The position numbers were made by a program, and so were the translations under genes. Shown here in pieces: positions 1-31,911 of a stretch of DNA of 64,000 nt. The notes under the pieces are model-generated. The model made no database searches, was not told where the DNA came from, and saw only the letters and a list, made by a program, of their open reading frames with translations. How positions within the stretch are numbered: position 1 is the stretch's first letter; each line of letters begins with the position of its first letter. This DNA comes from Candidatus Omnitrophota bacterium. GTDB taxonomy: Bacteria; Omnitrophota; Gorgyraeia; Zapsychrales; JANLHA01. The stretch covers positions 67,796 through 131,795 of the forward strand of contig JAKQKX010000063.1 in NCBI GenBank assembly GCA_029560465.1, written 5' to 3'.

Positions 1-202
1 AAATGGAGGGGGTCATCCGGATGCGTTTGCGACAGTAACCTTTATAACTGCAAATTAAAAGCAGCGGGCGGATGCGTTTCCCGGGCCGGAGGATGAAGTC
101 CCGGATGCCATGAAAAAGGATGGGGTCAATCTGGTCGAGCCTATAATTTTGATAAGCCTTGCTTAAAAAGGTGTCTAAACTTTGGTCGATTTTTTTTCTC
201 AT
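1..202 (-). CDS. polyprenyl diphosphate synthase (IspA/IspB-type), N-terminal fragment running off the window start
   Basis: The reverse-complement translation from the ATG at 202..200 reads MRKKIDQSLDTFLSKAYQNYRLDQIDPILFHGIRDFILRPGKRIRPLLLICSYKGYCRK. GKRxRPLL is the characteristic N-terminal motif of trans-prenyltransferases. Confidence 0.55.
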   Translation of the reverse strand, partial: MRKKIDQSLDTFLSKAYQNYRLDQIDPILFHGIRDFILRPGKRIRPLLLICSYKGYCRKRIRMTPSI

Positions 203-342
203 TTGTGTTAACATGGGCATTATCCTAACATAGCTGGGGCACGGCTGCAACTTTTATGTCATTGGGGCCTGCTGTTGTCCTCAACCCGGCGTTGGTGTTT
301 TTAAATAACAGAAAAGGCATTTATTTTGAAAAGGAGTTTGTT

Positions 343-903
343 ATGAAGAATCGTTTTTGGGCGGGACTGCTGGTGCTGTTGTTATGTCCTGGTTCGCTTT
401 GGGCGGATGAGATTCTTTTAAAAAACGGGAATAAGATTGACGGAAAGATCCTGGAAGAGAGCAAGTATTCCATTAAGGTGCTGGTGGATAAAAAGATTCA
501 GACGTTTTACCTCTCGGAAATTGAGAAAATCACCCGGGACGAGGAAATCGCCAAAGAGAAAAAAGAGAAAAAAGAAGGGGATGCTAAGAAGAAAGAACTG
601 ATCCTGAATTTGCTGAAGGCCAATTTAGCCCGGGACAATATGCAGAAGATTTTCAATCAGATTATCGAACAGGCGCCGGAGGAAACCCAGTCGCGGCTGC
701 GTAAAATTTTGTTGCCGGATGAAATTATTGAAAGGCTTGTTCCGCTTTATTCTAAATACTATTCTTCCGAAGAACTACAGGATTTGATCAATTTTTATAC
801 CAGCCCAACCGGGAAAAAGCACCTTGAAAAGACCCCAGAGCTTCTGGAAGAAACGTTGGTGGAAGCCGTGAAATATTTTCAGGATAAAGTCGCGGAACAG
901 TAA
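343..903 (+). CDS. secreted protein: N-terminal beta-hairpin motif plus a Lys/Glu-rich linker plus a DUF2059-like helical C-terminus
   Basis: The internal ATG at 343 has an AAAGGAG RBS 9 nt upstream. A signal peptide (MKNRFWAGLLVLLLCPGSLWA) follows. The C-terminus (ILNLLKANLARDNMQKIFNQIIEQ...LQDLINFYTSPTGKKHLEK) resembles DUF2059. The 5' extension from 256 lacks an RBS. Confidence 0.4.
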   Translation: MKNRFWAGLLVLLLCPGSLWADEILLKNGNKIDGKILEESKYSIKVLVDKKIQTFYLSEIEKITRDEEIAKEKKEKKEGDAKKKELILNLLKANLARDNMQKIFNQIIEQAPEETQSRLRKILLPDEIIERLVPLYSKYYSSEELQDLINFYTSPTGKKHLEKTPELLEETLVEAVKYFQDKVAEQ

Positions 904-1008
904 CCCATCGGCCCCCTAAGCCCTATGTGAGGGGGGCTGATGTCCCGCTATGGGTTGCGTATATCACGTCCTGTTTCTTAAACAGCGGTAATTAATGCCG
1001 GAAAAATC

Positions 1009-1037
1009 TTGACCGCATTTTTTCTCTATGATATCAT
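1009..1037 (+). promoter_or_regulatory. sigma70-like promoter upstream of the GH94 gene (TTGACC-17-TATCAT)
   Basis: -35 TTGACC is at 1009..1014 and -10 TATCAT at 1032..1037, about 60 nt upstream of the ATG at 1100. Confidence 0.4.
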
Positions 1038-1099
1038 CCCACTTATTCTTGATTTAAAAAATAGGAAAATATTTTTACCTGGAAGAAAGGTTTACGCCC

Positions 1100-3517
1100 A
1101 TGAAGTACGGTTCTTTTTCAAAATCGGGGTTGGAATACGTGATTTCCACGCCGCTGACCCCCCGGCCCTGGATTAATTATCTTACGAATGAAAACTACTG
1201 CAGCATCATTTCCCATTGCGCGGGGGGATACAGTTTTTATAAAGACTGCCGCACAAACCGGATAACCCGTTGGGCGCCGGAAAACTGGCATTTTGACCGG
1301 CCTGGGAAATATATATTTATGAGGGATGGCGCAAAGGCGTGGTCCTTAACTTATCAGCCCCTGCGGGTTAAGCCCCAAAAATACGAATGCCGCCACGGAT
1401 TGGGTTATACAACAATTTCCGCGGTCAATAACGGCGTTCATTCGGAAGTGACCTATTTTGTCCCGGAACACGATTCCTGCGAGGTTTGGTTGGTCAAGAT
1501 TTCCAATCAGACCAAAAAGGAGAAGAAACTGGAAATTTATCCCTATGTAGAATTCCTGATCGGGGATTATCATGAGGAGATCCGGTACCGGAATATTATG
1601 AACCTGTACACGCGGGTCTGGTTTGATAAAGGACAGAAGGCTGTCTTTGCCCAAAAAACCGCGCAGTGGCAGGGGATGAATATCCAGCCGTTTGATTCGC
1701 TGATTTATTTTGCCTCGTCCCTGGCCGTGAAAGGATGCTGCACGCAAAAGGACGCTTTTCTCGGGCGGTATAATTCCGAGGAGAAGCCGGAAGCGGTTTT
1801 AGAAGGGCGTTTTAAGAATTTTCCTCTTTGTTCAGGGGAAGACGGCATTGGGTCTTTTAAGCATAGCGTGACTCTGAAGCCCGGGGAGACGAAAGAATTT
1901 TCAGTTATTTTGGGGCAGACGCCCGATGTCCCGGGTGTAGGGAAGCTGATTGCCAAGTACCGCGACCTGAAGCAGGCCAGAGCGGAATTTGAGAAGACCC
2001 GAGAGCTGTGGCGCAGGCGCGTCACGGAGAATATTGTTTTGGAGACCCCGGACAAGGATTTTAATACTTTATTTAATGTGTGGGTCAAGTATCAGTTATA
2101 TATTTGTAACCTGTGGTCGCGGTCTCCGAGTTTTTATCATGAAGGGTCCGGCGGCCGGGGGTACCGGGATTCGGCCCAGGATTCCGAAGCCGTTGTGTCC
2201 ATTAACGCGTCTTTAACCCGTCAAAAGATTTTGAAACTGGCCTCCTTGATCCGTCGTGATGGCACGTCTGCCCCAGGATGGTCGGAAACAGCGGGGCCGC
2301 ACAAATTCCTCCCGAATAAAGATCATCCCGTTTGGCTGACGACGACTGTCACGGCCTATATTAAGGAAACGGGCGACAAGGATATCTTGTGTGAATATGT
2401 CCCGTATTTGAAGGATAAATGGATCAACGGATGGGAGGTTGATCCGAATTATCACGGCGGCGCGCAGACGGACGGGGAAGGGACATTGCTGGAGCATTTG
2501 GAAAAGAACTTAAGTTTTTGTTTTAATGATGTCGGAGAGAAGGGCTTTCCACGGATCGGGCACGCCGACTGGAATGACGCGATTGACGCGGCGGGCATCA
2601 AGCACAGGGGGGAAAGCGTCTGGCTGGCGCAGGCCTTAGTCCGTTCTTTGAAAATGCTGGCCGAGCTCTGTCAGCTCGTGAATGAGGAACAGAAAAAATC
2701 CGAATACCTGCAGATGGCCAAAACCATGACGGAACGCATTAATAACGCCGGCTGGGACGGGGAATGGTATTCCCGCGGGTTTGATGACCAGGGGCAGGTT
2801 TACGGCAGCAAACAGGATAAAGAGGGCAAGATATTTTTAAACACGCAGGCCTGGGCGGTTCTTTCCGGAGTGGCCGAAGGCGAACGGTTGAAAAAGATTT
2901 TACAGTCCACGGATAAGCATTTGAACGGCCCGCACGGATTGGCGCTGTTCGCCCCGGCGTTTTCAGGCTGGGTTAAAAGGCTGGGCCGGATCAGCATGTT
3001 TTCAGAAGGAACGAAAGAAAATGCGGCGGTGTTCTGCCACGCGGCCACGTTCATGGCGGTGGGTTACGCCATGGCCGGGTACGGCGCGAAAGCTTACGAA
3101 GCGGTCTGCAAAATTATGCCTAATAAACAGAAAAATATGGACCTTTATAAAACTGAACCCTATGTGTTCGCGGAATATTTGGTCGGGCCGGATAATCCTT
3201 ACCGGTATGGGGAAGGTGCTTTTACCTGGATCACGGGAACATCGGGTTGGAATTTTATGCTGGCGACAGAGTGGATCTGCGGGGTCCGCCGGGATTTCCA
3301 GGGGCTCAAAATCGATCCATGCCTGCCTCCGCAGTGGAAGAAATGTTGTGTGCGCCGGCCTTTTAGGGGGGATATTTACGAGATTGAAATCCTCAACCCG
3401 AAAGGGAAAGAAAAGGGCGAGAAGACGATAACGGTAGACGGACAACGGATAGATGGGGACGTTATAGTTCCTTTTAAAGACGGCCAGGTCCACCGCGTTA
3501 AGGTGGTTCTGGGATAA
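1100..3517 (+). CDS. GH94 glycoside phosphorylase (cellobiose/cellodextrin/laminaribiose/chitobiose phosphorylase family)
   Basis: The 805-aa product has the N-terminus EYVISTPLTPRPWINYLTNENYCSIISHCAGGYSFYKDCRTNRITRW, which is collinear with the cellobiose phosphorylase N-terminal domain. The GHADWNDA motif matches the GH94 catalytic region (GRADWND), and the length is typical for GH94. Confidence 0.85.
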   Translation: MKYGSFSKSGLEYVISTPLTPRPWINYLTNENYCSIISHCAGGYSFYKDCRTNRITRWAPENWHFDRPGKYIFMRDGAKAWSLTYQPLRVKPQKYECRHGLGYTTISAVNNGVHSEVTYFVPEHDSCEVWLVKISNQTKKEKKLEIYPYVEFLIGDYHEEIRYRNIMNLYTRVWFDKGQKAVFAQKTAQWQGMNIQPFDSLIYFASSLAVKGCCTQKDAFLGRYNSEEKPEAVLEGRFKNFPLCSGEDGIGSFKHSVTLKPGETKEFSVILGQTPDVPGVGKLIAKYRDLKQARAEFEKTRELWRRRVTENIVLETPDKDFNTLFNVWVKYQLYICNLWSRSPSFYHEGSGGRGYRDSAQDSEAVVSINASLTRQKILKLASLIRRDGTSAPGWSETAGPHKFLPNKDHPVWLTTTVTAYIKETGDKDILCEYVPYLKDKWINGWEVDPNYHGGAQTDGEGTLLEHLEKNLSFCFNDVGEKGFPRIGHADWNDAIDAAGIKHRGESVWLAQALVRSLKMLAELCQLVNEEQKKSEYLQMAKTMTERINNAGWDGEWYSRGFDDQGQVYGSKQDKEGKIFLNTQAWAVLSGVAEGERLKKILQSTDKHLNGPHGLALFAPAFSGWVKRLGRISMFSEGTKENAAVFCHAATFMAVGYAMAGYGAKAYEAVCKIMPNKQKNMDLYKTEPYVFAEYLVGPDNPYRYGEGAFTWITGTSGWNFMLATEWICGVRRDFQGLKIDPCLPPQWKKCCVRRPFRGDIYEIEILNPKGKEKGEKTITVDGQRIDGDVIVPFKDGQVHRVKVVLG

Positions 3518-3556
3518 GAGCGGGTGGGGCTTGTGTGATATTAGAGAAACGCTTTT

Positions 3557-3585
3557 TTGACAAAGTAAAACATGCGTGATAGAAT
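3557..3585 (+). promoter_or_regulatory. near-consensus sigma70 promoter upstream of the ABC binding-protein gene (TTGACA-17-TAGAAT)
   Basis: -35 TTGACA is at 3557..3562 and -10 TAGAAT at 3580..3585, in the 200-bp gap before the ATG at 3721. Confidence 0.5.
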
Positions 3586-3720
3586 ACGCCGTTATCTATT
3601 CTTATATTAAAGACATAATGTTTAATTTAATCATCCCAATGATTTAAAGCTCATCCCCGAAGTCGTCGTTTTCAATATGAATTTGTTCTACTCATTGGGG
3701 CCTCATTTAAAGGAGCGGGT

Positions 3721-5031
3721 ATGAAAGGGAAATTGCTGTTGGTGATCGGGTTTTGTGCCTTGGCGACCATTATCTGGAGTTGTCAAAGTTGCGGGCCGGC
3801 TGTGCCTCCCAATAAAAATATGATTACGGTATGGCATTGGATGACCGATCGGCATGACGCTTTCAATGAATTGGCCAAGCGCTATCAGGCCGAAACGGGC
3901 GTGGAAGTGGTTTTTGAATTATACGCCCCGTCTGACGTTTATTCCCAAAAAATTATAGCCGCTGCCCAGGCGCATATCTTGCCGGATATTTTTGGCATCC
4001 TGGATAAAAAGGCCGTGTTCGCAACGTTTATTGAAAGCGGATTCATCGCCAATTTGACGGAGGAATTTCAGAAAGATGAGGCGGCATGGGAAAAAAGCCT
4101 TTTCCCAAAAGCCCTTTCCGCCAACCGTTTTGAAGAAGGCAATGTTTATAATATTAAACCGGGTATTTACGGGGTTCCGATTGATGTGACCAATATCCAG
4201 ATGCTTTATAACAAGAAGCTGCTGGAGAAAGCCGGGGTCGTGCGTGCTCCCCAGACGTTTGACGAGTTCCTGGCCGCGACCGAAGCCCTGAATCGGGTCG
4301 GCGTTTCCGGGCTGGTTTCCGGTTGGGGCGAGCTTTGGATGGCGGATTGCTTCGCGTCTAATTACGCGTTTAATATTATGGGAGAAGACAAGGTCATGAA
4401 CACGTTCCGCGGGAAAGTGCCGTACACTGACCCGGAATGGATTGAAGTGTTCCGGATTTTTGATATTTTACGGCAAAAAGGCGCTTTGGTGGAAGGGATT
4501 GTGACTAAAGCCAATAAGTACGCGGAACAGGACTTTGCCTTGGGCCGGGCCGCTTTCGCGTTTAACGGGTCCTGGTGCGTGAATGTGTACCATGAGATGA
4601 ACCCGGATTTGGAGTATGGGATTATCCTTCCTCCTAAATATAACACGAGTCTTCCCATGCGGATTTGGGGAGGCGCAGGATCATCGTTTGTTGTCAATAG
4701 CGCTTCTGAAAAACAGGATAAAGCCGTCGCTTTCCTGAAATGGCTTTCCGCAAAAGAACAACAGGCGTATTTGTCTCAGGAAACTTTGAACCTGCCGGCT
4801 AACCGGTATGCGCTGACCGATATCCCGGCTGTGCTTTCGGAATTCGCCCGGGCCATGGACGCGACCACCCATCCGACGATTTGGCCGTTGAATGAGGAAC
4901 CCTTGGTGATCGAGGCGTTTGACAAGGGGATTCAATCGATTATCATAGGAGAGAAAACTCCCGAACAAGTTGCCCAGGACGTGCAGAACGTGAAAGAGCG
5001 TGAGATGGCGAAAAAACAAAAACGGAAATAA
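3721..5031 (+). CDS. carbohydrate ABC transporter substrate-binding lipoprotein (family 1 SBP)
   Basis: A lipoprotein signal (LLLVIGFCALATIIWSCQSC) is present. The 436-aa size and sequence pattern fit sugar-binding SBPs. Two permease genes lie immediately downstream. Confidence 0.75.
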   Translation: MKGKLLLVIGFCALATIIWSCQSCGPAVPPNKNMITVWHWMTDRHDAFNELAKRYQAETGVEVVFELYAPSDVYSQKIIAAAQAHILPDIFGILDKKAVFATFIESGFIANLTEEFQKDEAAWEKSLFPKALSANRFEEGNVYNIKPGIYGVPIDVTNIQMLYNKKLLEKAGVVRAPQTFDEFLAATEALNRVGVSGLVSGWGELWMADCFASNYAFNIMGEDKVMNTFRGKVPYTDPEWIEVFRIFDILRQKGALVEGIVTKANKYAEQDFALGRAAFAFNGSWCVNVYHEMNPDLEYGIILPPKYNTSLPMRIWGGAGSSFVVNSASEKQDKAVAFLKWLSAKEQQAYLSQETLNLPANRYALTDIPAVLSEFARAMDATTHPTIWPLNEEPLVIEAFDKGIQSIIIGEKTPEQVAQDVQNVKEREMAKKQKRK

Positions 5032-5053
5032 CTTTTAAACGAAATTAATCATA

Positions 5054-5983
5054 ATGTCTTTGGCTCTCAAAAGCAAATTTTCACTTCCAAACCTTCGAGA
5101 TCACCTGGAGAGTTTCGCGTTTGTCCTGCCCGCCGTCCTTATTTTTTGTATATTTTATATCGTCCCATTTTACGAAATATTTAAACTGTCCCTGCAGGAA
5201 TGGGATGGCATCAGTTTATCCAGAAGTTATATTGGATTTGAGAATTTTAAAGAATTGTTGGTTGACCAGGGCTGGTGGAGGTCGATGTGGAATGCCGCCT
5301 ATATTACCCTGGTGGCCCTGACCTTTCAGAATGCGCTGGCCTTTGCTCTGGCCCTGGCCTGTGACCAGGAAATTTTTATGAAAGGGGTGTACCGGGTTAT
5401 TTTCTTTATCCCTCCGGTGCTTTCCGAAGTCGTGGTCGGGCTTATCTGGTCCTGGATTCTTTATTCCGGCATGCAGGACGGCCAGCATATCGGGTTGTTG
5501 AATACTGCTTTGGAAAAAATCGGTTTTTCGAACCTGATCACCAATTGGCTGTCCAATCCCAAGACGGTGTTGACCTGCATCGCCGTGGTCCATTCCTGGA
5601 AAGGGTTTGGGTGGGGCTTCATCATGTTTTTAGCCGGGTTGCAGACGATTGACCGCCAGCTATATGAGGCGGCGCGGGTGGATGGCGCCGGGTCGCTCAG
5701 TGTTTTTAAAAATGTGACGGTTCCCATGATGCTGCCGGTGATCGTGGTTGTGATGATTTTAACGATCCTGGGGGCGATGCAGGCTTTTGTCCTTATCCTG
5801 ACGTTGGCGGGCAGTTCGGGGCTGGGGGATTATACCGCCGTCCCGGTGACCAAGATCTTGGCGGCCATGACCGGGCAGAACCGCTACGGTTATGCCTGCG
5901 CCATGGGGGTTAATTTCGGGATGATTTTAATAGCCGTGTCTTTTGTCCTCAAGAAAATGTCCGAACAGATGAAACAGGCTTAA
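5054..5983 (+). CDS. sugar ABC transporter permease (MalF/UgpA-like)
   Basis: Six predicted TM helices with an EAA-type loop (LYEAARVDGAGSLSVFKNVTVP). Confidence 0.8.
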   Translation: MSLALKSKFSLPNLRDHLESFAFVLPAVLIFCIFYIVPFYEIFKLSLQEWDGISLSRSYIGFENFKELLVDQGWWRSMWNAAYITLVALTFQNALAFALALACDQEIFMKGVYRVIFFIPPVLSEVVVGLIWSWILYSGMQDGQHIGLLNTALEKIGFSNLITNWLSNPKTVLTCIAVVHSWKGFGWGFIMFLAGLQTIDRQLYEAARVDGAGSLSVFKNVTVPMMLPVIVVVMILTILGAMQAFVLILTLAGSSGLGDYTAVPVTKILAAMTGQNRYGYACAMGVNFGMILIAVSFVLKKMSEQMKQA

Positions 5984-5997
5984 AAAGAGGAATACAT

Positions 5998-6870
5998 ATG
6001 ATCAGCAAATACAGGGTGATCCGGGCTGTTAAGGCGACATTGATCCATATTTTTCTTTTGACCGTGACCATAACGTGCTTGTTCCCGTTGTTTTGGATGG
6101 CCCGTTCGGCGCTGATGAGCAACAAAACGATTTTTACGGATAAATCCCTGATTCCGGCGGAGATTCATTTTGATAATTTCGTGAAGGCTTGGACGCAAGG
6201 ACAGTTCGGCATGTATTCGCTCAATAGCCTCATTTACACCTTTTCCGTTGTGATTGGGATCGTGGTGATTTCGTCTCTGGCGGCTTATGCTTTTTCCCGG
6301 CTGGAGTTCCCGGGCAAGAATTTCTTCTTTTACATGTTTGTCATGGCCATGATGATCCCGCTCCCCGGGAGTTTTGTCCCGTTAACGGTGTTGATGACGA
6401 AGTTGGGGTTCATCAATTCGTCGTACCCGTTTGTCCGGCAGCTGGGGTATGTGCTGTGTATGATCAACGTGGGCTTATCGCTCAGTATTCTGCTTTTAAA
6501 AACTTTTTTTGACAAGATGCCTCCGGACCTGGAAGACGCCGCCCGTATTGACGGTTGCTCGAAGCTGGGGATATGGAGGCATGTGGCTTTACCCTTGGCC
6601 CGGCCGGCCATTGCCGTTATCGTGATTTTTAACGCATTGAATGTTTGGAATGAGTATATCCTGGCGATGTTGTTGTTAAACGACATCCCGAATCATCCTA
6701 CCATCATGCCGATCCAAAGGGGCCTCATGGTTTTTCAGGGAACATACCTCGCGGACTATCCTCTTTTGATGGCTGGGTTGACCATCGCTGCCGTTCCAAT
6801 TATTTTGGTGTATCTTCTGATGCAAAAGCACATTATTAAAGGTTTGTCATCCGGCGCTGTCGTTGGATAA
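5998..6870 (+). CDS. sugar ABC transporter permease (MalG/UgpE-like)
   Basis: The EAA loop (LEDAARIDGCSKLGIWRHVALPLARPA) is typical of MalG-type permeases. Confidence 0.8.
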   Translation: MISKYRVIRAVKATLIHIFLLTVTITCLFPLFWMARSALMSNKTIFTDKSLIPAEIHFDNFVKAWTQGQFGMYSLNSLIYTFSVVIGIVVISSLAAYAFSRLEFPGKNFFFYMFVMAMMIPLPGSFVPLTVLMTKLGFINSSYPFVRQLGYVLCMINVGLSLSILLLKTFFDKMPPDLEDAARIDGCSKLGIWRHVALPLARPAIAVIVIFNALNVWNEYILAMLLLNDIPNHPTIMPIQRGLMVFQGTYLADYPLLMAGLTIAAVPIILVYLLMQKHIIKGLSSGAVVG

Positions 6871-6893: not shown

Positions 6894-9506
6894 GTGAGAA
6901 AAAACAAACAAGGGGAAAAAACTGTATTAGGATTTTTATTCCTGGCCGGATTTCTTTCGCTGGGGTTGGTGACGTCGGGCTGGACGCAGGGTGCGGATGG
7001 CGAAAGCCTTGTTGTTGATAGGGCGGTTGAGGCGAAGCAGGCTACTGAAGCGGAGGGTTCTCTCGCGCCGAGCCCGGAAGAAGAGCTTTTGGCGGAACCC
7101 GAGGGCGTTGCTGTTGCGGAGGATCCCTCAGAGGAAACGGAAGCTCCGGAAGCGGGTGAGGGAAAGACGGAAGAGGAGAGTCCGGCCGAGGGTGCTGCCG
7201 TGGATGAGGTTTCTAAAGAAGAAATGAATATTACTTTGCCGGTGGGAGGGGAGGCTGTCCCTTACACGGACATCGAGCTTGAGGCGGGGGCGACCAAGGA
7301 TGATTTTGTCCGGAAATCCTGGGAACTGTCCAGCCAGAGGAAATTAGAGCAGCTGGATAAGCTGGTGGCGGTGGCGTTGGCACTTTTTGATGGGGAGGCC
7401 CGCAAAGAACAAGCGTCTTTGTCTGGATTCCCAGGGCGGGGTAAGGAAAAGGATTATGCTTATTTAAACACGGTGGCGACCATCCTGTTTGTGCAGGCGG
7501 AAGCGATGATGAATTATGGCCGTACGGAAGAGTCGATCGCGACATTCCAGAAAATTATTGATGAATATCCCTGGGCGCAAGCTTGGGATCCTTCTCGGGG
7601 GTCATACTGGTCTGTGGCGGAAAAGAGCCAGGCGAGCATTGATGTCATGACCGGGAAAGTCGAAGAAGAGCCGGACGAGCCGCCGACACGGTTGCGGACG
7701 CTGCCTTCCCTGGCCTTTCCCGGAACGGTCCAAGTGGTCGATTATCATAAATACGGGGAGTTTCTCGATGTGGGAACAGACCGGTATCATTATAAGATTA
7801 ATGACCTTAAAGGGTTGAAAGAGGCTGTGGGGGAAGGGGTTTATCCCAATACCGCGGATGTGTTTAAGGATCCGAAATATAAGCAGGCAAAAAAAGAAGG
7901 CCGCCTTGAAGGCAGCCACTGGGATTTTGTGCACAGCGATGACCTGGAAGCCGCTTTTTATAAATGGGCGACGGCCCCGGAACCCGGCGGCGTCAAGCTT
8001 TTTTACCTGGGTATGATTTTTGAAAAAGCGCAAATGTATTATGAGGCCATTAAAACTTACCAGGCCATTATCGTTCATTTTCCAAAGACGGTCGGGTGGA
8101 CGTATTGGCAGACGCCTTGGTATCCGGCTCAAGCCGCGGTTTCCAAGATTATTTATTTGGTGCGTTCCCACCCGGAATTAAATTTAAAAGTGAAATGGAT
8201 GAAAATAGAAGTTAAGAACGGTTTTGATAATGATGTCAGCAACGATGTTGTGGTTACGTATCCTGGTGTCATTCAGGAAAGAGGGTGGATGGATAAAGTT
8301 AAGGAAGGGCTGAACCTGGATAAAAAGAAGGTGCCTTTACGCAATGTCACGCGGCGTTTGGGGGAAGGCAAGGTTTCTCTGGTGCAGTATGATAACGGCC
8401 ACTGGCAGCTCCTGGTGGAAGGCAAGCCGTATGTTATTAAAGGAGTCACGTATGCTCCGACCAAAATCGGTCAGAGCCCGGATAAGGGGACCTTGGTGTC
8501 TTGGATGTATGAAGATACCAACAAGAACGGCAAGGCGGATGGACCGTTTGATGCCTGGGTGGACGCCAACGGTAATAATCAGCAGGACCCGGATGAATTG
8601 GTCGTCGGGGACTTTCAGTTGATCCAGGAGATGGGCGGCAATACCCTCCGGGAATACCACCAGCCGTTTAAACCGAACAAGGACGTTCTGAGGAAGCTTT
8701 ATGAGGAATATGGGATCCGGGTGATCCTGGGGGATTTCCTTGGGAAATACACTCTGGGGTCTGGGGCGTCCTGGTTTGAAGGGACCGATTATGAAAATCC
8801 GGAACATCAGAAGAATATGATGGAATCCGTCCGTCAAATGGTTATGGAACATAAGGATGAGCCTTATCTTTTGTTTTGGCTTTTAGGGAACGAGAACAAT
8901 TACGGAGTCGCCTCTAACGCAGATAAGAAGCCGGAGGCGTATTATAAATTCGCCAATGAGGTGGCTAAAATGATCAAAAGCATTGACCCTAACCATCCGG
9001 TGGCGTTATGTAACGGCGACACCCTGTATCTGGATATTTTCGCGAAGAACGCTCCGGATATTGATATGTTTGCGGCCAATGTTTATCGCGGTGATTATGG
9101 TTTCGGCGCTTTCTGGCAGCAGATTCAGGAGTCGACCGGGAAAGCGGCTTTTATTACCGAGTATGGCTGCCCGGCCTACGCCAAGCATCTCACGAAAGCG
9201 GAGGGGGAAGAAGCGCAGATGAACTATCACCGCGGCAACTGGCATGATATTGAAGCGAATATGGCGGGCCACCCGGAGGGCGCGGGGAACGCCATTGGGG
9301 GGGTTGTCTTTGAGTGGACGGATGAATGGTGGAAGAATTATGAGCCGTTTTATCATGACCGCCGGTCTGATGCGATCGGGCCTTTCCCCGGCGGATACTA
9401 TTATGAAGAATGGTTTGGTATTACAAGCCAGGGCAATGGAACGCACAGCCCCTTTATGCGCCAGTTGAGGAAAAGTTATAAATTTTATAAGGAAGCCTGG
9501 AATTAA
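6894..9506 (+). CDS. secreted multidomain clan GH-A enzyme, GH72-like (Gas/Gel/Phr-type glucanosyltransferase/glucanase fold) with an N-terminal acidic linker and two Trp-rich helical modules
   Basis: GTG start with a signal peptide. Residues ~30-110 form a low-complexity E/A/P-rich linker. Two copies of the ...DEYPWAQAWDPSRGSYW / ...HFPKTVGWTYWQTPWYPAQA module follow. The C-terminal TIM-barrel motif series is YVIKGVTYAP, GGNTLREYHQP, LFWLLGNENNYG (acid/base NE), DMFAANVYRGDYGF and FITEYGCPAY (nucleophile E). Confidence 0.7.
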   Translation: MRKNKQGEKTVLGFLFLAGFLSLGLVTSGWTQGADGESLVVDRAVEAKQATEAEGSLAPSPEEELLAEPEGVAVAEDPSEETEAPEAGEGKTEEESPAEGAAVDEVSKEEMNITLPVGGEAVPYTDIELEAGATKDDFVRKSWELSSQRKLEQLDKLVAVALALFDGEARKEQASLSGFPGRGKEKDYAYLNTVATILFVQAEAMMNYGRTEESIATFQKIIDEYPWAQAWDPSRGSYWSVAEKSQASIDVMTGKVEEEPDEPPTRLRTLPSLAFPGTVQVVDYHKYGEFLDVGTDRYHYKINDLKGLKEAVGEGVYPNTADVFKDPKYKQAKKEGRLEGSHWDFVHSDDLEAAFYKWATAPEPGGVKLFYLGMIFEKAQMYYEAIKTYQAIIVHFPKTVGWTYWQTPWYPAQAAVSKIIYLVRSHPELNLKVKWMKIEVKNGFDNDVSNDVVVTYPGVIQERGWMDKVKEGLNLDKKKVPLRNVTRRLGEGKVSLVQYDNGHWQLLVEGKPYVIKGVTYAPTKIGQSPDKGTLVSWMYEDTNKNGKADGPFDAWVDANGNNQQDPDELVVGDFQLIQEMGGNTLREYHQPFKPNKDVLRKLYEEYGIRVILGDFLGKYTLGSGASWFEGTDYENPEHQKNMMESVRQMVMEHKDEPYLLFWLLGNENNYGVASNADKKPEAYYKFANEVAKMIKSIDPNHPVALCNGDTLYLDIFAKNAPDIDMFAANVYRGDYGFGAFWQQIQESTGKAAFITEYGCPAYAKHLTKAEGEEAQMNYHRGNWHDIEANMAGHPEGAGNAIGGVVFEWTDEWWKNYEPFYHDRRSDAIGPFPGGYYYEEWFGITSQGNGTHSPFMRQLRKSYKFYKEAWN

Positions 9507-9740: not shown

Positions 9741-10601
9741 ATGCACAAAAAGATTTTGTTATGCATGATGGCGGCCATCTTAGGCGTGTCCTTAGCCATT
9801 CCGGTGCCAGCGGCTGCTTATAATTTTGGAGATTACCGTTCCGTGACACTGATCACGAGTGCTTGGCAGGCCTTAGGGGAGAATGATTTGGAAGCCGTAT
9901 TGGCTTATACGAATAAATGTGTTGAATTATATTCTGAGCAGGCCAAAAAAATGCAGGCCAGCCTGACGGCTTATCCAACCGGCACTAATGATGAAATTTT
10001 CTCTTACTGGGCGTTAAACGATATCGCGACCGGTTTGTTTATTCAGGGTGAAGCGTACCGCAAGGCCAAAATGACAGACGAAGCGGTGAAAGCGTATCAG
10101 ACCGTTGTGGATGAGTATACCTATGGCCAGTGCTGGGATCCGAAGGGATGGTTCTGGAAACCGGCGGAAGCCGCGAAAGAGAAAATTGCTATGATCGAAT
10201 CCGGATCAAATCTGGATTTTGGCGACTATACCTCCATGACTTTAACGGTTAAAGCTTGGGAAGCCCTTGGCAACAAAGATCTGGACAGTGTCGTGGCCTA
10301 TACGAATAAGTGCCTGGAGCTTTATGAAGCGAAAGCTAAAGAGATGCAGGAATCCATGACCGAATATGCTTGGGAATCCAAAGACAAGATTTTCTCTTAC
10401 TGGGCGCTCAATGACGTTGGAACCTGCTATTTTATCAGAGGCGAAGCTTATTTGAACGCCGGGAAGAAAGAAGAAGCGAAGAAAAACTTCAAGAAACTGG
10501 TAGACGAATATTATTTCTCGCAGTGCTGGGATCCGAAGGGCTGGTTCTGGAAGCCGGCAGAAGGCGCCCAGCAGAAACTAGAGGCTCTGGAGGAAGAATA
10601 A
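9741..10601 (+). CDS. secreted protein made of two tandem copies of a Trp-rich helical module of unknown function
   Basis: A signal peptide precedes residues 28-147 and 158-277, which are about 55% identical to each other. Both copies end in YGQCWDPKGWFWKPAE / FSQCWDPKGWFWKPAE. Confidence 0.75.
   Translation: MHKKILLCMMAAILGVSLAIPVPAAAYNFGDYRSVTLITSAWQALGENDLEAVLAYTNKCVELYSEQAKKMQASLTAYPTGTNDEIFSYWALNDIATGLFIQGEAYRKAKMTDEAVKAYQTVVDEYTYGQCWDPKGWFWKPAEAAKEKIAMIESGSNLDFGDYTSMTLTVKAWEALGNKDLDSVVAYTNKCLELYEAKAKEMQESMTEYAWESKDKIFSYWALNDVGTCYFIRGEAYLNAGKKEEAKKNFKKLVDEYYFSQCWDPKGWFWKPAEGAQQKLEALEEE
9822..10571 (+). repeat. intragenic tandem duplication (2 x ~390 nt) encoding the Trp-rich module
   Basis: The DNA and protein self-similarity is visible by eye: FGDYRSVTLITSAWQALGENDLEAVLAYTNKC versus FGDYTSMTLTVKAWEALGNKDLDSVVAYTNKC. 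Confidence 0.7.
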
Positions 10602-10690: not shown

Positions 10691-10756
10691 ATCATCCTGC
10701 AGTCAATTTAATATTAGGTTATGGGTGTTGATTTACATGAAAGGGCGAGATGTCTT

Positions 10757-11398
10757 ATGAACAAAATTGTCTTTTTCTGGGGGCTGTGTTTCCTGGTAAT
10801 ATGCGGCTGCAACCGGAGCAGTTCCAGCCTGACATCACAGGGAAATTCGAACCGGAATGTTGAACAGGAAGAAACCAATTTCCAGCCGTTCCTTGTTTAT
10901 AAAGACAAAGGGTCCAGGGGAAATCATTTTGTCCCTTCCGGTTTTATGCCGAACGGGAAATGTATTAATTTTAACGACGCCTGGCAGGAAAATTGTTATG
11001 ACGGCAAAACCTGTATTCGTGTGGAGTATGACGTGGCTTGCTCGAAAGATGATCAGAAATGGGCCGGCATTTATTGGCTGAACCCGGCGAATAACTGGGG
11101 CAGCCGTAAGGGCGGGTTTAACCTCGCGGGCGCCAGGGAGTTGAGCTTTTGGGCCAAGGGCGAAAAAGGCGGCGAACGTATTGAGGAATTCAAGATGGGC
11201 GGGATTACCGGGGATTTTCCGGATTCCGACATGGCGATCATCGGGCCGGTGATCCTGACGAACGAGTGGCGCAAATACACGATCGATTTGAGGGGCCGCG
11301 ATTTGTCTTACGTGAGCGGCGGCTTTTCTTGGTCGACGAATGTCGACGTAAATCCCGACGCCTGCACGTTTTACCTGGATAATATCCAATATCAATAG
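10757..11398 (+). CDS. lipoprotein with a possible carbohydrate-binding-module-like beta-sandwich domain
   Basis: The internal ATG at 10757 gives the lipobox FLVICGC. The body is rich in aromatic/Gly/Asn residues (GIYWLNPANNWGSRKGGFNLAGARELSFWAKGEKGGERI), typical of CBM-like folds. Confidence 0.45.
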   Translation: MNKIVFFWGLCFLVICGCNRSSSSLTSQGNSNRNVEQEETNFQPFLVYKDKGSRGNHFVPSGFMPNGKCINFNDAWQENCYDGKTCIRVEYDVACSKDDQKWAGIYWLNPANNWGSRKGGFNLAGARELSFWAKGEKGGERIEEFKMGGITGDFPDSDMAIIGPVILTNEWRKYTIDLRGRDLSYVSGGFSWSTNVDVNPDACTFYLDNIQYQ

Positions 11399-11423: not shown

Positions 11424-11456
11424 AGGGGGGGCGGGTTACCGTTCCCCCGTTTTTTT
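11424..11456 (+). terminator. rho-independent terminator
   Basis: The GGGGGGGCGG ... CCGTTCCCCC stem contains two G-U pairs and is followed by TTTTTTT. Confidence 0.6.
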
Positions 11457-11659: not shown

Positions 11660-12982
11660 ATGTCGAGAGCTGCAAAGTCTATTTTAGTGTTTTTGCTCTT
11701 ATTGCTTTTTGTCTCCGTCGGAGTACTGACGTATGTCGCTTTTCAGAAGCAAGAGTCCGATAAATCAAAATTATCCCTGGAAAAGCAGATGGATGATTTT
11801 CAGCAGAGGGAGAAAAAATATATCCTTGAGAATAAAGATTTGCAGGAGAAGTTGAAGGATGTTGAAAAGAAGAAAGCCGAACTTGAAGAACGCTTGAGTT
11901 CTTTTGGCGGTGATATGGAGTCCCTCAACAAGCAGATCGCGGATTTAACCAGTGAACGGGAAGTTTTGCAGGAAAAAATCGCGGAGCTGGAAAAGGAACG
12001 GAACACCTTATTGACCAGGGTTAAAGAAAAGCCGGAGCCGCAGATTGTTTATAAATACGTGGACCGGGAAACCGGCGCGCCGGTGGAGTCCCCGGGGGCG
12101 GCCTCTCCCGCGGCGGGGAAGAAGCCGGAAGAACCGGTGATCAGCAAAGAAATCCCGGCGGTGAGGGTTCCGGAGATATCTCCTGACAACGAAACATATT
12201 GGGCTCAGGTCATCCGGGAAAAAACTTCCCTTGAGCTGGAGGTGAACACTTTAAAAAAGAAATTGGATGCCAATATGCTCGAACTGGAAGCCTTAAAAAA
12301 ATCCAATTCCGACTTGGAATTAGAAATCGCCGAGTTAGCGAATACCAAAGATTCCATCGAGAGAGAGATCAAACATGGCAAAGATCTGGCGGATAATTTG
12401 TCTTTGGCTTTAGCACGGGCGGAGAATGATAAGGAATTCTTAAACGGCCGGTTTGCAAAACTCAACGATGAAAATTCATCCTTGAGGGTCCAGATTAAAG
12501 ATTTGACATCAACCAAGATCGCCCTGGAAAAAAGTATTGTCCGCTTGCAGGATGAGAAGAAGGACGTGGAGCGGAAATTGATGGAAACCGAGCATGTCAT
12601 TCAAAACCGCATTGATGAAATCTGGCAGATTAAGGACAGCCTAGAGAAGAATTTTCAGATGTCCGGAGCCTCGTCAAAGGCGGTCGAGTTGCCGCCAATT
12701 GTTGTTTCTGGCGCTGGAGAAACGTCGACAAGGGCCGCCCCGGAGGTTATTTTGACCGTCCCGGGGTTTAACGGCAACATCGTTTCTGTGAATGATGAAA
12801 ATAATTTTGTTATCGTTGATTTAGGGCAGAATGATGGCATCAAGCTTGGGGATAACATGAGCGTTTACCGGGGCGCGGAATATGTCGCGGCCCTGGAAGT
12901 GATCCAGGTGCGCAAAGATATAGCCGCCGCGGACATTAAAAACAAAGTCACCACAATCCGTGTCGGTGACGCCGTACGATAA
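11660..12982 (+). CDS. membrane-anchored long coiled-coil protein with a C-terminal beta-rich (SAF/FlgA-like) domain
   Basis: An N-terminal TM helix is followed by ~300 aa of heptad-repeat K/E/L-rich sequence. The C-terminus reads NIVSVNDENNFVIVDLGQNDGIKLGDNMSVY. Confidence 0.5.
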   Translation: MSRAAKSILVFLLLLLFVSVGVLTYVAFQKQESDKSKLSLEKQMDDFQQREKKYILENKDLQEKLKDVEKKKAELEERLSSFGGDMESLNKQIADLTSEREVLQEKIAELEKERNTLLTRVKEKPEPQIVYKYVDRETGAPVESPGAASPAAGKKPEEPVISKEIPAVRVPEISPDNETYWAQVIREKTSLELEVNTLKKKLDANMLELEALKKSNSDLELEIAELANTKDSIEREIKHGKDLADNLSLALARAENDKEFLNGRFAKLNDENSSLRVQIKDLTSTKIALEKSIVRLQDEKKDVERKLMETEHVIQNRIDEIWQIKDSLEKNFQMSGASSKAVELPPIVVSGAGETSTRAAPEVILTVPGFNGNIVSVNDENNFVIVDLGQNDGIKLGDNMSVYRGAEYVAALEVIQVRKDIAAADIKNKVTTIRVGDAVR

Positions 12983-12993
12983 TTCAGGACAAC

Positions 12994-13998
12994 GTGACCA
13001 GGAAACGTAAAGTCAGCATAGAGGATGTCGCCCGCCGCGCCAAGGTTTCCATTACAACCGTTTCGCGTGTTATCAACAATGTTCCCACCGTCAGCCAGCA
13101 AAATCGTTCTAAAGTTGAAGAAGCGATCACCGCTTTGAAATATAAGCCGGATGTCAGCGCCCAGCGTTTGGCCAGCGGCACCAATAATGCCATCGGCTTG
13201 GTCATGCCCGGCTATCCGGGGATTTTTTATTCTTTTTACGCCATCGAAATTATCCGGGGGGTGGGGCATGCCTGTGAGACCCTGCGCCTGGATTTGGTGT
13301 TTCATATCACCAACGGGTTTAATCCGCTGAATACTAATAGCGTTGGAGGCGTCATTTTTGCCGATATCATTGAGAACCGGAAACAGGTTGAAGAAGCGTT
13401 ATCCGCCGATATACCTTGCATGGTCATTAATAATGTCGTGGATGACCTGGATGTGAATTATATCGGGATCGATAACGTCGCCGGAGGCCGTATTGCCGCC
13501 GATTATCTTGTCAGCCTGGGGCACCAGCGTGTCGCTATGATTACCGGAAAATTACAGACACAAGCCGGGTTTCAGCGCTTTGAAGGTTTTCAGCAGGGGC
13601 TTCAGAAGGAAAACATAGCTTTGAAGGATGAATATGTGGTTGAGGGGGATTATTCCCGCCGCAGCGCCCGGAATGCGACGGAGAAACTTCTCGCGCTTCC
13701 TCAGCCGCCGACCGCTATATTTGCGGCAAGCGATGATATGGCTTTGGAGGTCATTACCGTGATACAGGAAAGAGGGATGAAGGTCCCTGATGATATTTCG
13801 GTGATCGGGTTTGACGATAATCCCGCCAGCCTTTATGGCGCTATTGCTTTGACCACGATCCGGCAGTCTTTGTTCCAGATGGCCGAATACGCCGTGAAAT
13901 ACCTGCAGAACATAATGTCCGGGAAAAAGAAATCCGCTGTCCAGATGGTTTTAACTCCGCAGCTTGTTGTCCGCGATTCCTGCCGTGCCCTGAAGTAG
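12994..13998 (+). CDS. LacI-family transcriptional regulator
   Basis: GTG start. The N-terminal HTH (VSIEDVARRAKVSITTVSRVINN) is followed by a periplasmic-binding-fold sugar sensor domain. Confidence 0.85.
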   Translation: MTRKRKVSIEDVARRAKVSITTVSRVINNVPTVSQQNRSKVEEAITALKYKPDVSAQRLASGTNNAIGLVMPGYPGIFYSFYAIEIIRGVGHACETLRLDLVFHITNGFNPLNTNSVGGVIFADIIENRKQVEEALSADIPCMVINNVVDDLDVNYIGIDNVAGGRIAADYLVSLGHQRVAMITGKLQTQAGFQRFEGFQQGLQKENIALKDEYVVEGDYSRRSARNATEKLLALPQPPTAIFAASDDMALEVITVIQERGMKVPDDISVIGFDDNPASLYGAIALTTIRQSLFQMAEYAVKYLQNIMSGKKKSAVQMVLTPQLVVRDSCRALK

Positions 13999-23847: not shown

Positions 23848-24240
23848 ATGATTAATTTTGACATTACATTTAAACCAGGCGTGCCGATTTACGAACAGGT
23901 CATTTTCGCTGTGAAAAAATCTATCGTTGCCGGCCACCTGAAGCCGGGAGACCGGTTCCCCTCGGTTCGCGAAATGAGCCGGGAATTGCGCATTAATCCT
24001 AATACGGCGCAGAAAGTGGTTTCTCACCTGGTGAATGAACGGTTGCTTCAGGTAAAACCCGGGATCGGCAGTGTTGTATCAGAGTTAAGCCTGGCGAACC
24101 AGGAACAGAGGGGGGAAGTTCTTCAGAACGAAGTTGAACGGCTCGTTGTGGAAGCCAAGCGGCTTTCCATTGCCAAAAAGGAGCTGCTGGACGCGGTTCA
24201 GCGCCAGTGGGACAATAACAACACGAAAGAGACGCTATGA
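23848..24240 (+). CDS. GntR-family (YtrA-like, short) transcriptional regulator
   Basis: A winged-HTH N-terminus (IYEQVIFAVKKSIVAGHLKPGDRFPSVREMSRELRINPNTAQKV) in a 130-aa protein. Confidence 0.8.
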   Translation: MINFDITFKPGVPIYEQVIFAVKKSIVAGHLKPGDRFPSVREMSRELRINPNTAQKVVSHLVNERLLQVKPGIGSVVSELSLANQEQRGEVLQNEVERLVVEAKRLSIAKKELLDAVQRQWDNNNTKETL

Positions 24241-25145
24241 AGACCGTTATAGAAACCAGAAGCTTAACGAAGAAATTCGGAGCTAAAACCATTTTGGCGC
24301 AAATTGATCTGGATGTGCCGGCAGGAAGCATTTACGCGTATTTGGGGCCGAACGGGGCCGGAAAGACGACCACCATCAAAACCATGGTCAATATCCTGCG
24401 GCCGACCAGGGGCACAGTAAAAATTTTGGGGGTGGATTCCACGGCTCTGGACGCGAAAGAGTTTCGGCAGATCGGGTATGTTTCGGAAAATCAGGTGCTG
24501 CCGGAAGGGATGACGGCAAACGCGCTTTTTGATTATTGCCGGCCCATGTACCCACAGTGGGATGAAGGATTCTGCCAGTCTTTGACCCGGCAGTTTGACC
24601 TCCCTTGTGATGAACCCATTGAGAAATTATCCCGGGGCATGAAAATGAAAGCGGCGCTCATTGCGTCTTTGGCCTATCGTCCTAAGCTGCTGATCTTAGA
24701 TGAGCCTTTCAGCGGCCTGGATCCGGTGGCACGCAAGGATTTGATGGACGGGATCATGGAATTGACCGGAACGGAGGAGTGGACGATTTTTATATCATCG
24801 CATGATATAGAGGAAGTGGAACACTTGGCGGACTGGGTCGGGTTTCTGCATAAAGGGCAGTTGAAACTAAGCGAAACCACCGAATCCCTGCAAGCCCGGT
24901 TTAAAAGGATCAATATTACCCTGAAAAACCCGCTGGAATCGGAGGTGCCTTTTCCTGCGAACTGGCTGTTGCCCCAGCAGGAGGGCCGGTTTCTGTGTTT
25001 TGTGGACAATTCTTTCCAGCCCGGGGAGAGCGAAAAGCAGTACAGAAAAGGATTGCCGGCGGTTTCCACGATTGAAATCCAGGGGATGTCTCTGAAAGAA
25101 ATATTTTTGATTCAGGCCAGGCAGTTAAAAATGTTGAATATATAG
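24237..25145 (+). CDS. ABC transporter ATP-binding protein with a C-terminal extension
   Basis: Walker A (GPNGAGKTT), the signature LSRGMKMK and Walker B (LLILDEP) are present. Start and stop overlap the neighbouring genes. Confidence 0.85.
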   Translation: MKTVIETRSLTKKFGAKTILAQIDLDVPAGSIYAYLGPNGAGKTTTIKTMVNILRPTRGTVKILGVDSTALDAKEFRQIGYVSENQVLPEGMTANALFDYCRPMYPQWDEGFCQSLTRQFDLPCDEPIEKLSRGMKMKAALIASLAYRPKLLILDEPFSGLDPVARKDLMDGIMELTGTEEWTIFISSHDIEEVEHLADWVGFLHKGQLKLSETTESLQARFKRINITLKNPLESEVPFPANWLLPQQEGRFLCFVDNSFQPGESEKQYRKGLPAVSTIEIQGMSLKEIFLIQARQLKMLNI

Positions 25146-25156
25146 GAGAAAAACAT

Positions 25157-31446: not shown

Positions 31447-31911
31447 ATGATGAAACGGTATTTAATTCTTTTAACGGCCGTGTTGGGTTTGTTTGCCGTA
31501 TCGACGGCCGCGCTGGCGCTGGATTTCGGTGATTATAAATCATCCACGCTCACGGCCAAAGCCTGGGGCGCGCTGAACAGCAAAGATTACAAGGAAGCGA
31601 TTATTTACACGGACAAATGCATTGAACTGTATTCGGATAAAGCTCGGGAGATGCAGGCTAAGATGAACGAATACCCGTCCGGGGCGACGGAGGAGATTCA
31701 CACGAATTACTGGGCGCTGAACGACGTGGCGACAAGTTTGTTCATAAAAGGGAAAGCTTTGCTTGAGCTGGGCCAGGAAGACCAAGCGAAGGATGTTTTT
31801 AAAACATTGATCGGGGAATTTACATACGGTCAATGCTGGGACCCGAATGGGCCGTGGTTCTGGGCTCCGGCCAGGGCGGCGAAAGATCAGTTGCTGGTCT
31901 TGGAAGGGTAG
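31447..31911 (+). CDS. secreted single-copy Trp-rich helical module protein
   Basis: The ATG at 31447 has a GAGAGGAG RBS. After a signal peptide the protein reads LDFGDYKSSTLTAKAW...TYGQCWDPNGPWFWAPARAAKDQL, which is the same module as in 9741..10601. Confidence 0.7.
   Translation: MMKRYLILLTAVLGLFAVSTAALALDFGDYKSSTLTAKAWGALNSKDYKEAIIYTDKCIELYSDKAREMQAKMNEYPSGATEEIHTNYWALNDVATSLFIKGKALLELGQEDQAKDVFKTLIGEFTYGQCWDPNGPWFWAPARAAKDQLLVLEG

Follow-up and report, generated by a model that had tools for sequence, protein, structure and literature searches.

The window analysed here is a stretch of 64,000 nucleotides from a Candidatus Omnitrophota bacterium (contig JAKQKX010000063.1, positions 67,796 to 131,795 of the forward strand). 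It holds three related glycosidase genes, whose proteins are called A, B and C (Table 1). All three are exported by Sec and belong to a single large prokaryotic family of (beta/alpha)8 glycosidases within glycoside hydrolase (GH) clan GH-A. Beyond export, their cellular location is presumed. A first, sequence-only reading of this DNA had taken them for a bacterial version of the fungal GH72 family, which would have been unusual. They are instead very probably enzymes of the GH157/GH158 type.

Table 1. Positions of the genes, domains and predicted catalytic residues discussed in the text (ORF, open reading frame; aa, amino acids; AF2, AlphaFold2; pLDDT, predicted local distance difference test; SBP, solute-binding protein).
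Feature	Position	Strand	Basis and remarks
GH94 disaccharide phosphorylase	1100..3517	+	805 aa; Pfam GH94 3.7e-103; best PDB match cellobiose phosphorylase 3QDE
CUT1-type sugar ABC importer	3721..6870	+	SBP 3721..5031; permeases 5054..5983 and 5998..6870; Pfam SBP_bac_8/SBP_bac_1, BPD_transp_1
Protein A	6894..9506	+	870 aa, GTG start; ORF call; Pfam GH2_C E 1.2e-11 and TPR_6
Acidic linker of A (aa 42-112)	7017..7229	+	composition; predicted disordered, pLDDT <50 for residues 25-121
TPR-like module 1 of A (aa 138-252), Trp-rich motif YPWAQAWDPSRGSYWSVAE	7305..7649	+	BLASTP; helical in AF2
TPR-like module 2 of A (aa ~351-428), contains TVGWTYWQTPWYPAQAA	7944..8177	+	Pfam TPR_6/TPR_2 at 369-399
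Catalytic barrel of A (aa 513-870)	8430..9503	+	PDB profile search, Foldseek, hhalign
Glu667 of A, predicted general acid/base (GNENNY)	8892..8894	+	aligns with NE of GH158(Pro) LGNESELN; invariant in 41/41 orthologs
Glu756 of A, predicted nucleophile (FITEYG)	9159..9161	+	aligns with GH158(Pro) TEFG; invariant in 41/41 orthologs
Two-copy TPR-like module protein, secreted	9741..10601	+	286 aa; downstream of A orthologs in 55/80 loci
Putative lipoprotein	10721..11398	+	225 aa; in 52/80 loci
Membrane-anchored coiled-coil protein	11660..12982	+	35/80 loci
LacI-family regulator	12994..13998	+	Pfam LacI and Peripla_BP_3; 32/80 loci, also L004-L006
Protein B	26884..28890	+	668 aa; ORF call; Pfam Big_9 at 560-644, GH2_C E 5.5e-4
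Tyr180-Gln181 of B, at the catalytic Asn-Glu position	27421..27426	+	alignments
Glu281 of B, retained nucleophile (LISEFG)	27724..27726	+	alignment; nucleophile in 60/60 family members
Protein C	30144..31382	+	412 aa; signal peptide and GH-A catalytic domain only
Glu181 of C, predicted acid/base (SNENE)	30684..30686	+	aligns with NE of GH158(Pro) and LaGH157
Glu285 of C, predicted nucleophile (LITEFG)	30996..30998	+	aligns with TEFG of GH158(Pro) and LaGH157
Single-copy TPR-like module protein directly after C	31447..31911	+	48-53% identity to each 9741..10601 repeat, E 3e-51

The three proteins and their catalytic residues

The three reading frames lie exactly where the sequence-only reading had put them. 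Their relatedness is also borne out, as they are true homologs by BLAST-type E-values and by profile-profile comparison, both well above chance. Over 397 aa, B is 55% identical to C (E 2e-163). A aligns with C through its catalytic part, the C-terminal 381 residues, at 30% identity over 361 aa (E 1e-32). When an A-type profile is compared with a B/C-type profile, hhalign gives a probability of 100% (E 6e-90, 336 columns). Each of the three sequences has a readable signal peptide, and the paired cysteines Cys74/Cys88 and Cys187/Cys196 are common to B and C. C is 100% identical to a protein annotated from a Candidatus Omnitrophota metagenome-assembled genome.

A series of five motifs had been described for these proteins. 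All five are present in A, B and C in the order given, but several details of the consensus were wrong. The first motif is YVIKGVTY in A (513-520), FFVKGVGY in B (52-59) and FLVKGMGY in C (52-59), so the F at its second position in B falls outside the consensus. The Cys-bearing stretch said to precede the second motif exists in B and C, but not in A. That second motif is DFQLIQEMGGNTLREYH in A (573-589), and DL(A/P)(I/L)IK(S/D)MNANTIRTWG at 103-119 in both B and C. The third had been written as L(M/F)W..GNEN(E/N), which fits A (LFWLLGNENNY) but neither C (LMWGISNENEV) nor B (LMWVVGYQNET). The fourth is D(I/V)HGCNVYRG in B and C (250-259) and DMFAANVYRG in A (724-733), where the M at position 2 had been missed. 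The fifth is FITEYG (A 753-758), LISEFG (B 278-283) or LITEFG (C 282-287). A sixth conserved motif, (F/Y)xDxWW(K/Q), had gone unmentioned; it lies at 806-815 in A, 333-342 in B and 337-346 in C.

This motif series is the pattern of clan GH-A. The AF2 models are (beta/alpha)8 barrels with hundreds of GH-A structural matches, and the conserved residues are those of the clan, the acid/base of B excepted. The pair of catalytic glutamates on strands 4 and 7 is likewise a trait of the clan, and is not specific to GH72.

Conservation was counted in a 60-sequence alignment of the family, with 41 A-type orthologs counted separately. The nucleophile glutamate is present in 60 of 60 family members and the acid/base glutamate in 55 of 60. 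In the sixth motif, D341 and W343 are each found in 59 of 60 sequences, and W344 in 55. All 41 A-type orthologs have N666, E667, E756, Y588, W812 and W813.

These residues can be compared with those of GH158(Pro). In that enzyme Glu143 is the acid/base and Glu229 the nucleophile; it is retaining, and its covalent intermediates have been trapped (PMC13195107). In HMMER alignments, N666-E667 of A and N180-E181 of C fall on LGNE of GH158(Pro) and on INE of LaGH157. The LaGH157 segment FITTEFGY aligns with LITEFGT of C, and the chain of its E224A mutant has an alanine at the position matching Glu285 of C. Further on, FYYADGWWKG of LaGH157 aligns with FQYADGWWKY of C, where A has FEWTDEWWKN. Judging from these alignments, A and C should use classical retaining double displacement, with Glu667/Glu756 and Glu181/Glu285 as the respective pairs.

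Two aromatic residues line the subsites of GH158(Pro), Trp77 at -2 and Trp236 at +1, and Trp77 selects the curved beta-1,3 chain (PMC13195107). Trp77 is part of NSIRTWG, which aligns with NTIRTWG in B and C, and with NTLREYH in A. By sequence alignment, the predicted counterparts of the two aromatics are W118 and W291 in C, and Y588 and Y762 in A. All 60 family members have an aromatic residue at each of these positions. For Phe278, Glu285 and Tyr291 of GH158(Pro) the alignment gave no counterpart.

At the acid/base site, B is the exception, which the sequence-only reading had overlooked. It has Tyr-Gln in place of Asn-Glu. Among the six B-type sequences, which include orthologs P0005-P0009, the first residue is always Tyr, and the second is Gln in five and Glu in one, giving the variants GYQNE, GYENE and SYQNA. 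The other 54 of the 60 family members retain Asn-Glu. B does keep its nucleophile and the other pocket residues. A register shift by two residues, which would let the downstream Asn-Glu in the QNE of B serve as acid/base, is unlikely because ortholog P0008 (SYQNA) does not have that Glu. Given these substitutions, B is probably inefficient at hydrolysing normal glycosides. Its role may be in binding, or it may be a specialised enzyme that needs an activated substrate or another catalytic base. Either way B is a natural experiment in the loss of the acid/base. The protein consists of a signal peptide, the GH-A domain (aa ~30-410) and a C-terminal beta-rich region with a Big_9 domain, which is immunoglobulin-like (Ig-like). 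In orthologs P0008 and P0009 this C-terminal region is DUF4082-like (PF13313).

Protein A has a signal peptide, an acidic disordered linker, two TPR-like modules, a beta-rich segment and the C-terminal barrel, in that order (pLDDT of the AF2 model 75.7). The linker had been described as rich in E, A and P, and of its 71 residues 21 are indeed Glu, 13 Ala and 6 Pro. In the alignment of A orthologs, which are 736-873 aa long, it is the N-terminal region that is weakly conserved.

The two Trp-rich modules that had been noticed in A are real too, and turn out to be two copies of a TPR-like module. This module is ~115-130 aa long and has the conserved pattern Y(G/A)QCWDP.G.FW.PAE. A has two copies, the protein encoded after it another two, and the protein that follows C a single one, so a glycosidase followed by a module protein is found twice in the window. 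Module 1 of A is 31-32% identical to both repeats of the 9741..10601 protein (BLASTP, E 2e-19 and 3e-18). Module 2 has AF2 helices at 351-425, and its residues 369-428 match the small TPR protein weakly (BLASTP, E 2e-5). For the protein after C, at 31447..31911, translation probably starts later than the TTG listed at 31366, and the signal peptide starts MMKRYLILL; the related locus L007 has a 153-aa ortholog in the same position. Among PDB sequences the TPR-like module protein has no relative. We infer that the modules are accessories that bind glycan or a partner.

Family placement

None of the three proteins matches PF03198, the GH72 family, at E<=10 in Pfam. GH2_C (PF02836) matches all three, with an E-value of 2.4e-5 for C (A and B in Table 1) and scores of 44.8, 19.6 and 24.1 bits for A, B and C (cut-off 21). 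The other parts of a GH2 enzyme, the GH2_N and GH2 Ig-like domains, were not matched in any of them by Pfam. NCBIfam gives only far-sub-threshold LacZ/GUS matches. Among the 60 relatives, Pfam finds GH2_C in 46 (best 1.8e-12) and GH72 in 17 (best 1.3e-5).

Sequence searches against the PDB point elsewhere. With phmmer, the best match of A is GH158(Pro) at 2e-11, followed by BuGH158 at 1e-9. For C it is GH158(Pro) at 9e-11, followed by the 537-aa chain 9FZ9 at 1e-8. The fold-search description identifies 9FZ9 as LaGH157, a GH157 enzyme that was crystallised with laminaribiose and laminaritriose. A literature search found no paper for PDB codes 9FZ9, 9G5G and 9G4N, nor for Labilibaculum antarcticum with laminarin.

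A profile of the 60-sequence family matches GH158(Pro) at 8e-25, BuGH158 at 5e-17 and LaGH157, over the whole barrel, at 4e-16. Further down come GH2 enzymes at about 1e-12 and the GH72 enzyme Gas2 at 9e-7. An A-type profile gives 1.7e-14 for GH158(Pro) and 2.6e-13 for BuGH158. GH158 thus supplies the best PDB sequence matches (1e-10 to 8e-25), which span only ~130-200 residues at ~20-26% identity. In structure searches with Foldseek, the top match is GH157 for C and GH158 for A (E 2e-12). For A, LaGH157 is neither among the listed sequence matches nor in the Foldseek top 50.

GH72 and GH2 are real but more distant clan relatives of the family. The alignment to Gas2 runs from family-profile position 9 to 279 against chain residues 5-278 and extends to the nucleophile region. 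GH72 is placed as the more distant clan-mate because GH158, GH157 and GH2 all outrank Gas2 in the family-profile scores. The sequence-only reading had named its own refutation, a best match to a well-populated bacterial family with a better E-value than GH72, and these results refute it.

It is very improbable that A, B and C are GH72 (Gas/Gel/Phr)-like beta-1,3-glucanosyltransferases that remodel glucan by transglycosylation. The shared motifs that suggested this belong to the clan, and nothing was found in support of transglycosylation or wall remodelling. In addition to the missing PF03198 match, GH158, GH157 and GH2 outscore GH72 in sequence and in structure. GH72 structures are not the nearest structural neighbours of A or C, and identity to them is 13-16%. 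C stops right after the barrel, which leaves no room for the Cys-rich C-terminal domain of GH72. The genes around A are catabolic, with an ABC importer, a LacI regulator and a GH94 phosphorylase.

Prokaryotes have many members of this family: among 1.84 billion cluster representatives, a profile search found 1338 clusters (at 50% identity) at E<=1e-30, and 3242 at E<=1e-10. Nothing about GH72 needs rethinking, as A, B and C are relatives of bacterial beta-glucanases in a populous family.

Gene neighbourhoods and distribution

A is the fifth gene of a co-directional block that runs from the GH94 phosphorylase over the solute-binding protein and two permeases to A, the TPR protein, the lipoprotein, the coiled-coil protein and LacI. 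After this comes mnmG. Synteny was counted with tblastn in 80 species-level loci of A orthologs, many of them truncated. The importer is found next to A orthologs in most of these, with the binding protein in 52 of 80 and the permeases in 54 and 55. The block from binding protein to LacI is syntenic in L004-L006 and in most of the 80 species-level genomes. A paper on the giant genes of Omnitrophota makes no mention of this operon.

A GH94 of the window type lies within 6 kb of A in 14 of the 80 loci. It was considered as a constant member of the operon and rejected, since none is present within 10 kb in L004, L006 and L007. NCBIfam has no match for the window GH94.

A divergent protein of the GH94 superfamily stands by the A operon in 13 more Omnitrophota genomes, nearly always directly upstream of the binding-protein gene (L012, L013, L017, L022, L024 at 35..2761, L035, L036, L040, L042, L043, L044, L050 and L057). 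It is 908 aa long in L024, a size that recalls laminaribiose phosphorylase, and is 22-29% identical to the window GH94. For the 908-aa protein Pfam reports the GH94 superfamily only, and NCBIfam has no match. In L004, a 1147-aa protein (172..3615) is encoded upstream of the binding protein of the operon. It was tried as a GH94 and rejected on its domains, which are CBM4_9 and a C-terminal Hint/pretoxin-HINT domain.

The lipoprotein has 1644 homologs. Those with a named source are nearly all from Omnitrophota, and the usual form is a two-copy protein of ~380 aa. It has no Pfam match and no PDB sequence relative; that it is a carbohydrate-binding beta-sandwich is unsupported and is not claimed here. 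Just past its gene is a terminator-like hairpin at 11425..11448 (10 pairs, 8 of them G-C, then a T-run). This suggests that the transcript of A, the TPR protein and the lipoprotein ends there, and that the coiled-coil and LacI genes are not part of that transcript.

B and C belong to a second conserved block of the window. Its order is GntR (23848..24240), an ABC ATPase, a 552-aa membrane protein, B, a DUF1570-like protein, C and the protein with a single TPR-like module. In the upstream unit at 23848..26815, the YtrA-like short GntR (130 aa) overlaps the start of the ABC ATPase gene, and the multi-pass membrane protein has no family match. The unit, which directly precedes B, is also conserved in L007 and could be an exporter operon that is co-transcribed with B and C. 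The 391-aa protein between B and C (28739..29914) has weak matches of DUF1570 and basic-secretory-peptidase type, and an N-terminal domain like that of Leptospira LA_0442. Because the start listed for it falls within the end of B, translation probably begins further downstream; the L007 ortholog has 345 aa.

A-type and B/C-type proteins differ greatly in number. There are ~17 close clusters of the B/C type, followed by Bacteroidota proteins at ~30% identity. The A type is abundant, with at least 1000 clusters at 90% identity, of which the top 120 are 59-79% identical to A and nearly all have TPR and GH2_C. At least 593 A-type loci were found in species-representative genomes, mostly Omnitrophota, and identity is 46-85% across the 80 loci that were kept.

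Residues ~273-870 of A are conserved at 46-53% in Endomicrobia/Elusimicrobiota and Auribacterota. Shorter A-type homologs, 47-52% identical to A from ~273 onwards, were seen in termite-gut and rumen Endomicrobia (L067, L069, L072, L076, L078, L080, L083, L085 and L087) and in Auribacterota (L074, L077 and L088). Among these 12 loci, only L083 has ABC importer genes. No other genes of the A operon were found in them, save a weak match to the lipoprotein in L087.

Function and comparison with known systems

Clues to the substrate come from characterised relatives and from the company that homologs keep. Characterised GH157 and GH158 enzymes cut laminarin, curdlan and fungal beta-glucan (PMC13195107, PMC10229575, PMC7157763). 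Some family members carry a fused GH16 laminarinase domain. Two homologs from Bacteroidota, P0037 (436 aa) and P0020 (616 aa), with ~30% identity to C, sit inside canonical marine laminarin utilisation loci. The order there is SusC, SusD, surface proteins, GH16, the homolog, a ~1100-aa protein, GH17, GH30 and an MFS transporter, and in L003 a Y_Y_Y-domain regulator lies upstream.

Laminarin loci have been published as GH149-GH0-GH16_3(-GH17-GH30_1) (PMC10108472), and as combining GH16_3, GH17, GH30_1, GH149 and GH158 under the Y_Y_Y regulator BguR (bioRxiv 10.64898/2026.01.10.698779). By elimination from this composition, the Bacteroidota homolog would be the gene labelled GH0 or GH158. The ~1100-aa proteins show no tblastn similarity to the window GH94; going by the published compositions, they may be GH149.

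The best explanation, which we hold to be fairly probable, is that the proteins are exported retaining beta-glucan depolymerases, nearest to GH158 and GH157, that feed an uptake pathway. On the linkage cleaved, the evidence leans slightly to beta-1,3. A, B and C would be exported by Sec, and A and C would cleave beta-glucan by double displacement. A would be the depolymerase of its operon, cutting extracytoplasmic beta-glucan, which could be laminarin or a fungal or bacterial beta-1,3-glucan. The solute-binding protein would bind the resulting oligosaccharides and the CUT1 ABC importer would take them up. In this genome, the GH94 would then phosphorolyse them to glucose-1-phosphate and glucose. 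LacI would control the operon by sensing a product.

The context of A suggests that a beta-linked oligosaccharide is imported and phosphorolysed inside. It does not fix the linkage, because the GH94 is closest to cellobiose and chitobiose phosphorylases, and because the matches of the binding protein are weak and mixed. In the PDB, the window GH94 matches cellobiose phosphorylase at 1e-147, chitobiose phosphorylase at 3e-125 and laminaribiose phosphorylase at 5e-43. The binding protein is matched best by NagB1 (8e-20) and NagB2 (4e-18), which bind chitin oligosaccharides, and the beta-1,2-glucan binder Lin1841 is also among its matches (9e-14).

These affinities of the GH94 and the binding protein weigh against the proposed beta-glucan pathway, and so do several other points. 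GH94 is missing from many orthologous loci, and there is no evident outer-membrane component for uptake. The characterised GH157 and GH158 enzymes are no more than ~20-26% identical, as noted above, and the HMMER match to GH158 is confined to strands 2-7. As far as is known, the assayed enzymes all lie outside the A/B/C subfamily. Taken alone, the Bacteroidota relatives have no GH157 or GH158 match among PDB sequences at E 1e-5. GH158 enzymes have an eight-stranded Ig-like domain after the barrel (PMC13195107), which C lacks: in the AF2 models C ends ~30 residues past the barrel, and A ends with it.

The same fold and mechanism could also serve another substrate. For A this might be a beta-1,4 or mixed-linkage glucan, from which cellobiose would be released, a beta-1,2-glucan, or a polymer of the chitin/chitosan type. 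The phosphorylase and binding-protein matches fit such substrates, GH158(Pro) itself also cleaves mixed-linkage glucans (PMC13195107), A orthologs have faint GH5_mannosidase and GH2 matches, and homologs live in termite-gut Endomicrobia. This alternative is nevertheless rather unlikely. The nearest characterised domains and the only informative contexts of relatives are specific to beta-1,3-glucan, the -2 aromatic that GH158(Pro) uses to select its chain is conserved, and a cellobiose-type GH94 is present in a minority of orthologous loci only.

Omnitrophota are ultra-small and possibly host-dependent; no cultures are known from the phylum, and its lifestyle is debated. The enzymes could have a role other than foraging, on the envelope glycan of the cell itself or on the surface of a host or prey, which would match the proposed host-dependent lifestyle. 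A is unusually conserved for a secreted glycosidase, to judge from the identities given above, and the operon lies beside housekeeping genes such as mnmG. The linked proteins of unknown function (lipoprotein, coiled-coil, TPR module) are found mainly in this phylum. However, the close association with a sugar ABC importer, a LacI repressor and GH94 phosphorylases points to catabolism, and neither a glycosyltransferase nor an export gene was noticed within the conserved block. Such a role is improbable.

A bolder version of the depolymerase reading takes A as the catalytic core of an undescribed, phylum-wide glycan-acquisition apparatus of Omnitrophota. It would include the TPR-like proteins as binders analogous to SusD, the lipoprotein, the coiled-coil protein and the ABC importer. 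A would be a divergent and possibly unclassified GH157/158-like glucanase, with shorter forms in Elusimicrobiota and Auribacterota, and B a glucan binder without acid/base, or an unusual transferase. Taken together, these proposals are speculative, and we think it doubtful that all of them hold.

Few carbohydrate-related loci in Omnitrophota are as well conserved as A and its operon. With no cultures known and the lifestyle in debate, identifying the substrate would show what these cells eat or attack. The points of remaining interest are the phylum-wide conservation of the operon, its lineage-specific accessory proteins and B without its acid/base. With <30% identity to any assayed enzyme, A, B and C would also widen the sequence space of laminarinases of the GH157/GH158 type.

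Known systems resemble these proteins to different degrees. GH72 enzymes (Gas2 2W61/2W62, Gel4 8PE1) have a Cys-rich C-terminal domain and a glycosylphosphatidylinositol signal, both of which A, B and C lack, and the setting here is a bacterium and a catabolic operon. GH2 enzymes (PF02836; beta-glucuronidases, beta-galactosidases) are exo-acting. A, B and C differ from them in having no N-terminal sugar-binding or immunoglobulin domains, and score near or below the Pfam threshold.

GH157 (LaGH157 9FZ9/9G4N/9G5G; BcellWH2_01931) is closer, and its nucleophile E224 and the YADGWWK segment align. The sequence similarity is weak however (phmmer 1e-8, profile 4e-16), and LaGH157, at ~530 aa, has extra domains that are missing from C. 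GH158 (BuGH158 6PAL; GH158(Pro) 9ORO/9P25) shares the GH-A barrel, the retaining mechanism and the aligned NE and TEFG motifs. The -2 aromatic in N-x-I-R-x-W/Y is kept, and so is the +1 aromatic ~6-7 residues past the nucleophile. In contrast, the HMMER match ends shortly past the nucleophile, and the DxWWK motif after strand 8 matches GH157 instead. B and C have a disulfide-bearing beta-hairpin insertion after strand 1, and A has its N-terminal TPR-like modules.

At the level of gene organisation, the Bacteroidota laminarin loci (GH16/GH17/GH30/GH149/GH158) import through SusC/D, whereas the A operon has a CUT1 ABC importer. The accessories of the A operon are TPR-like module proteins, the lipoprotein and the coiled-coil protein, and its phosphorylase is a GH94 that is variably present. 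What both have in common is a homologous catalytic domain, in a plan of extracellular depolymerase, binding proteins, importer, intracellular phosphorolysis and a dedicated regulator.

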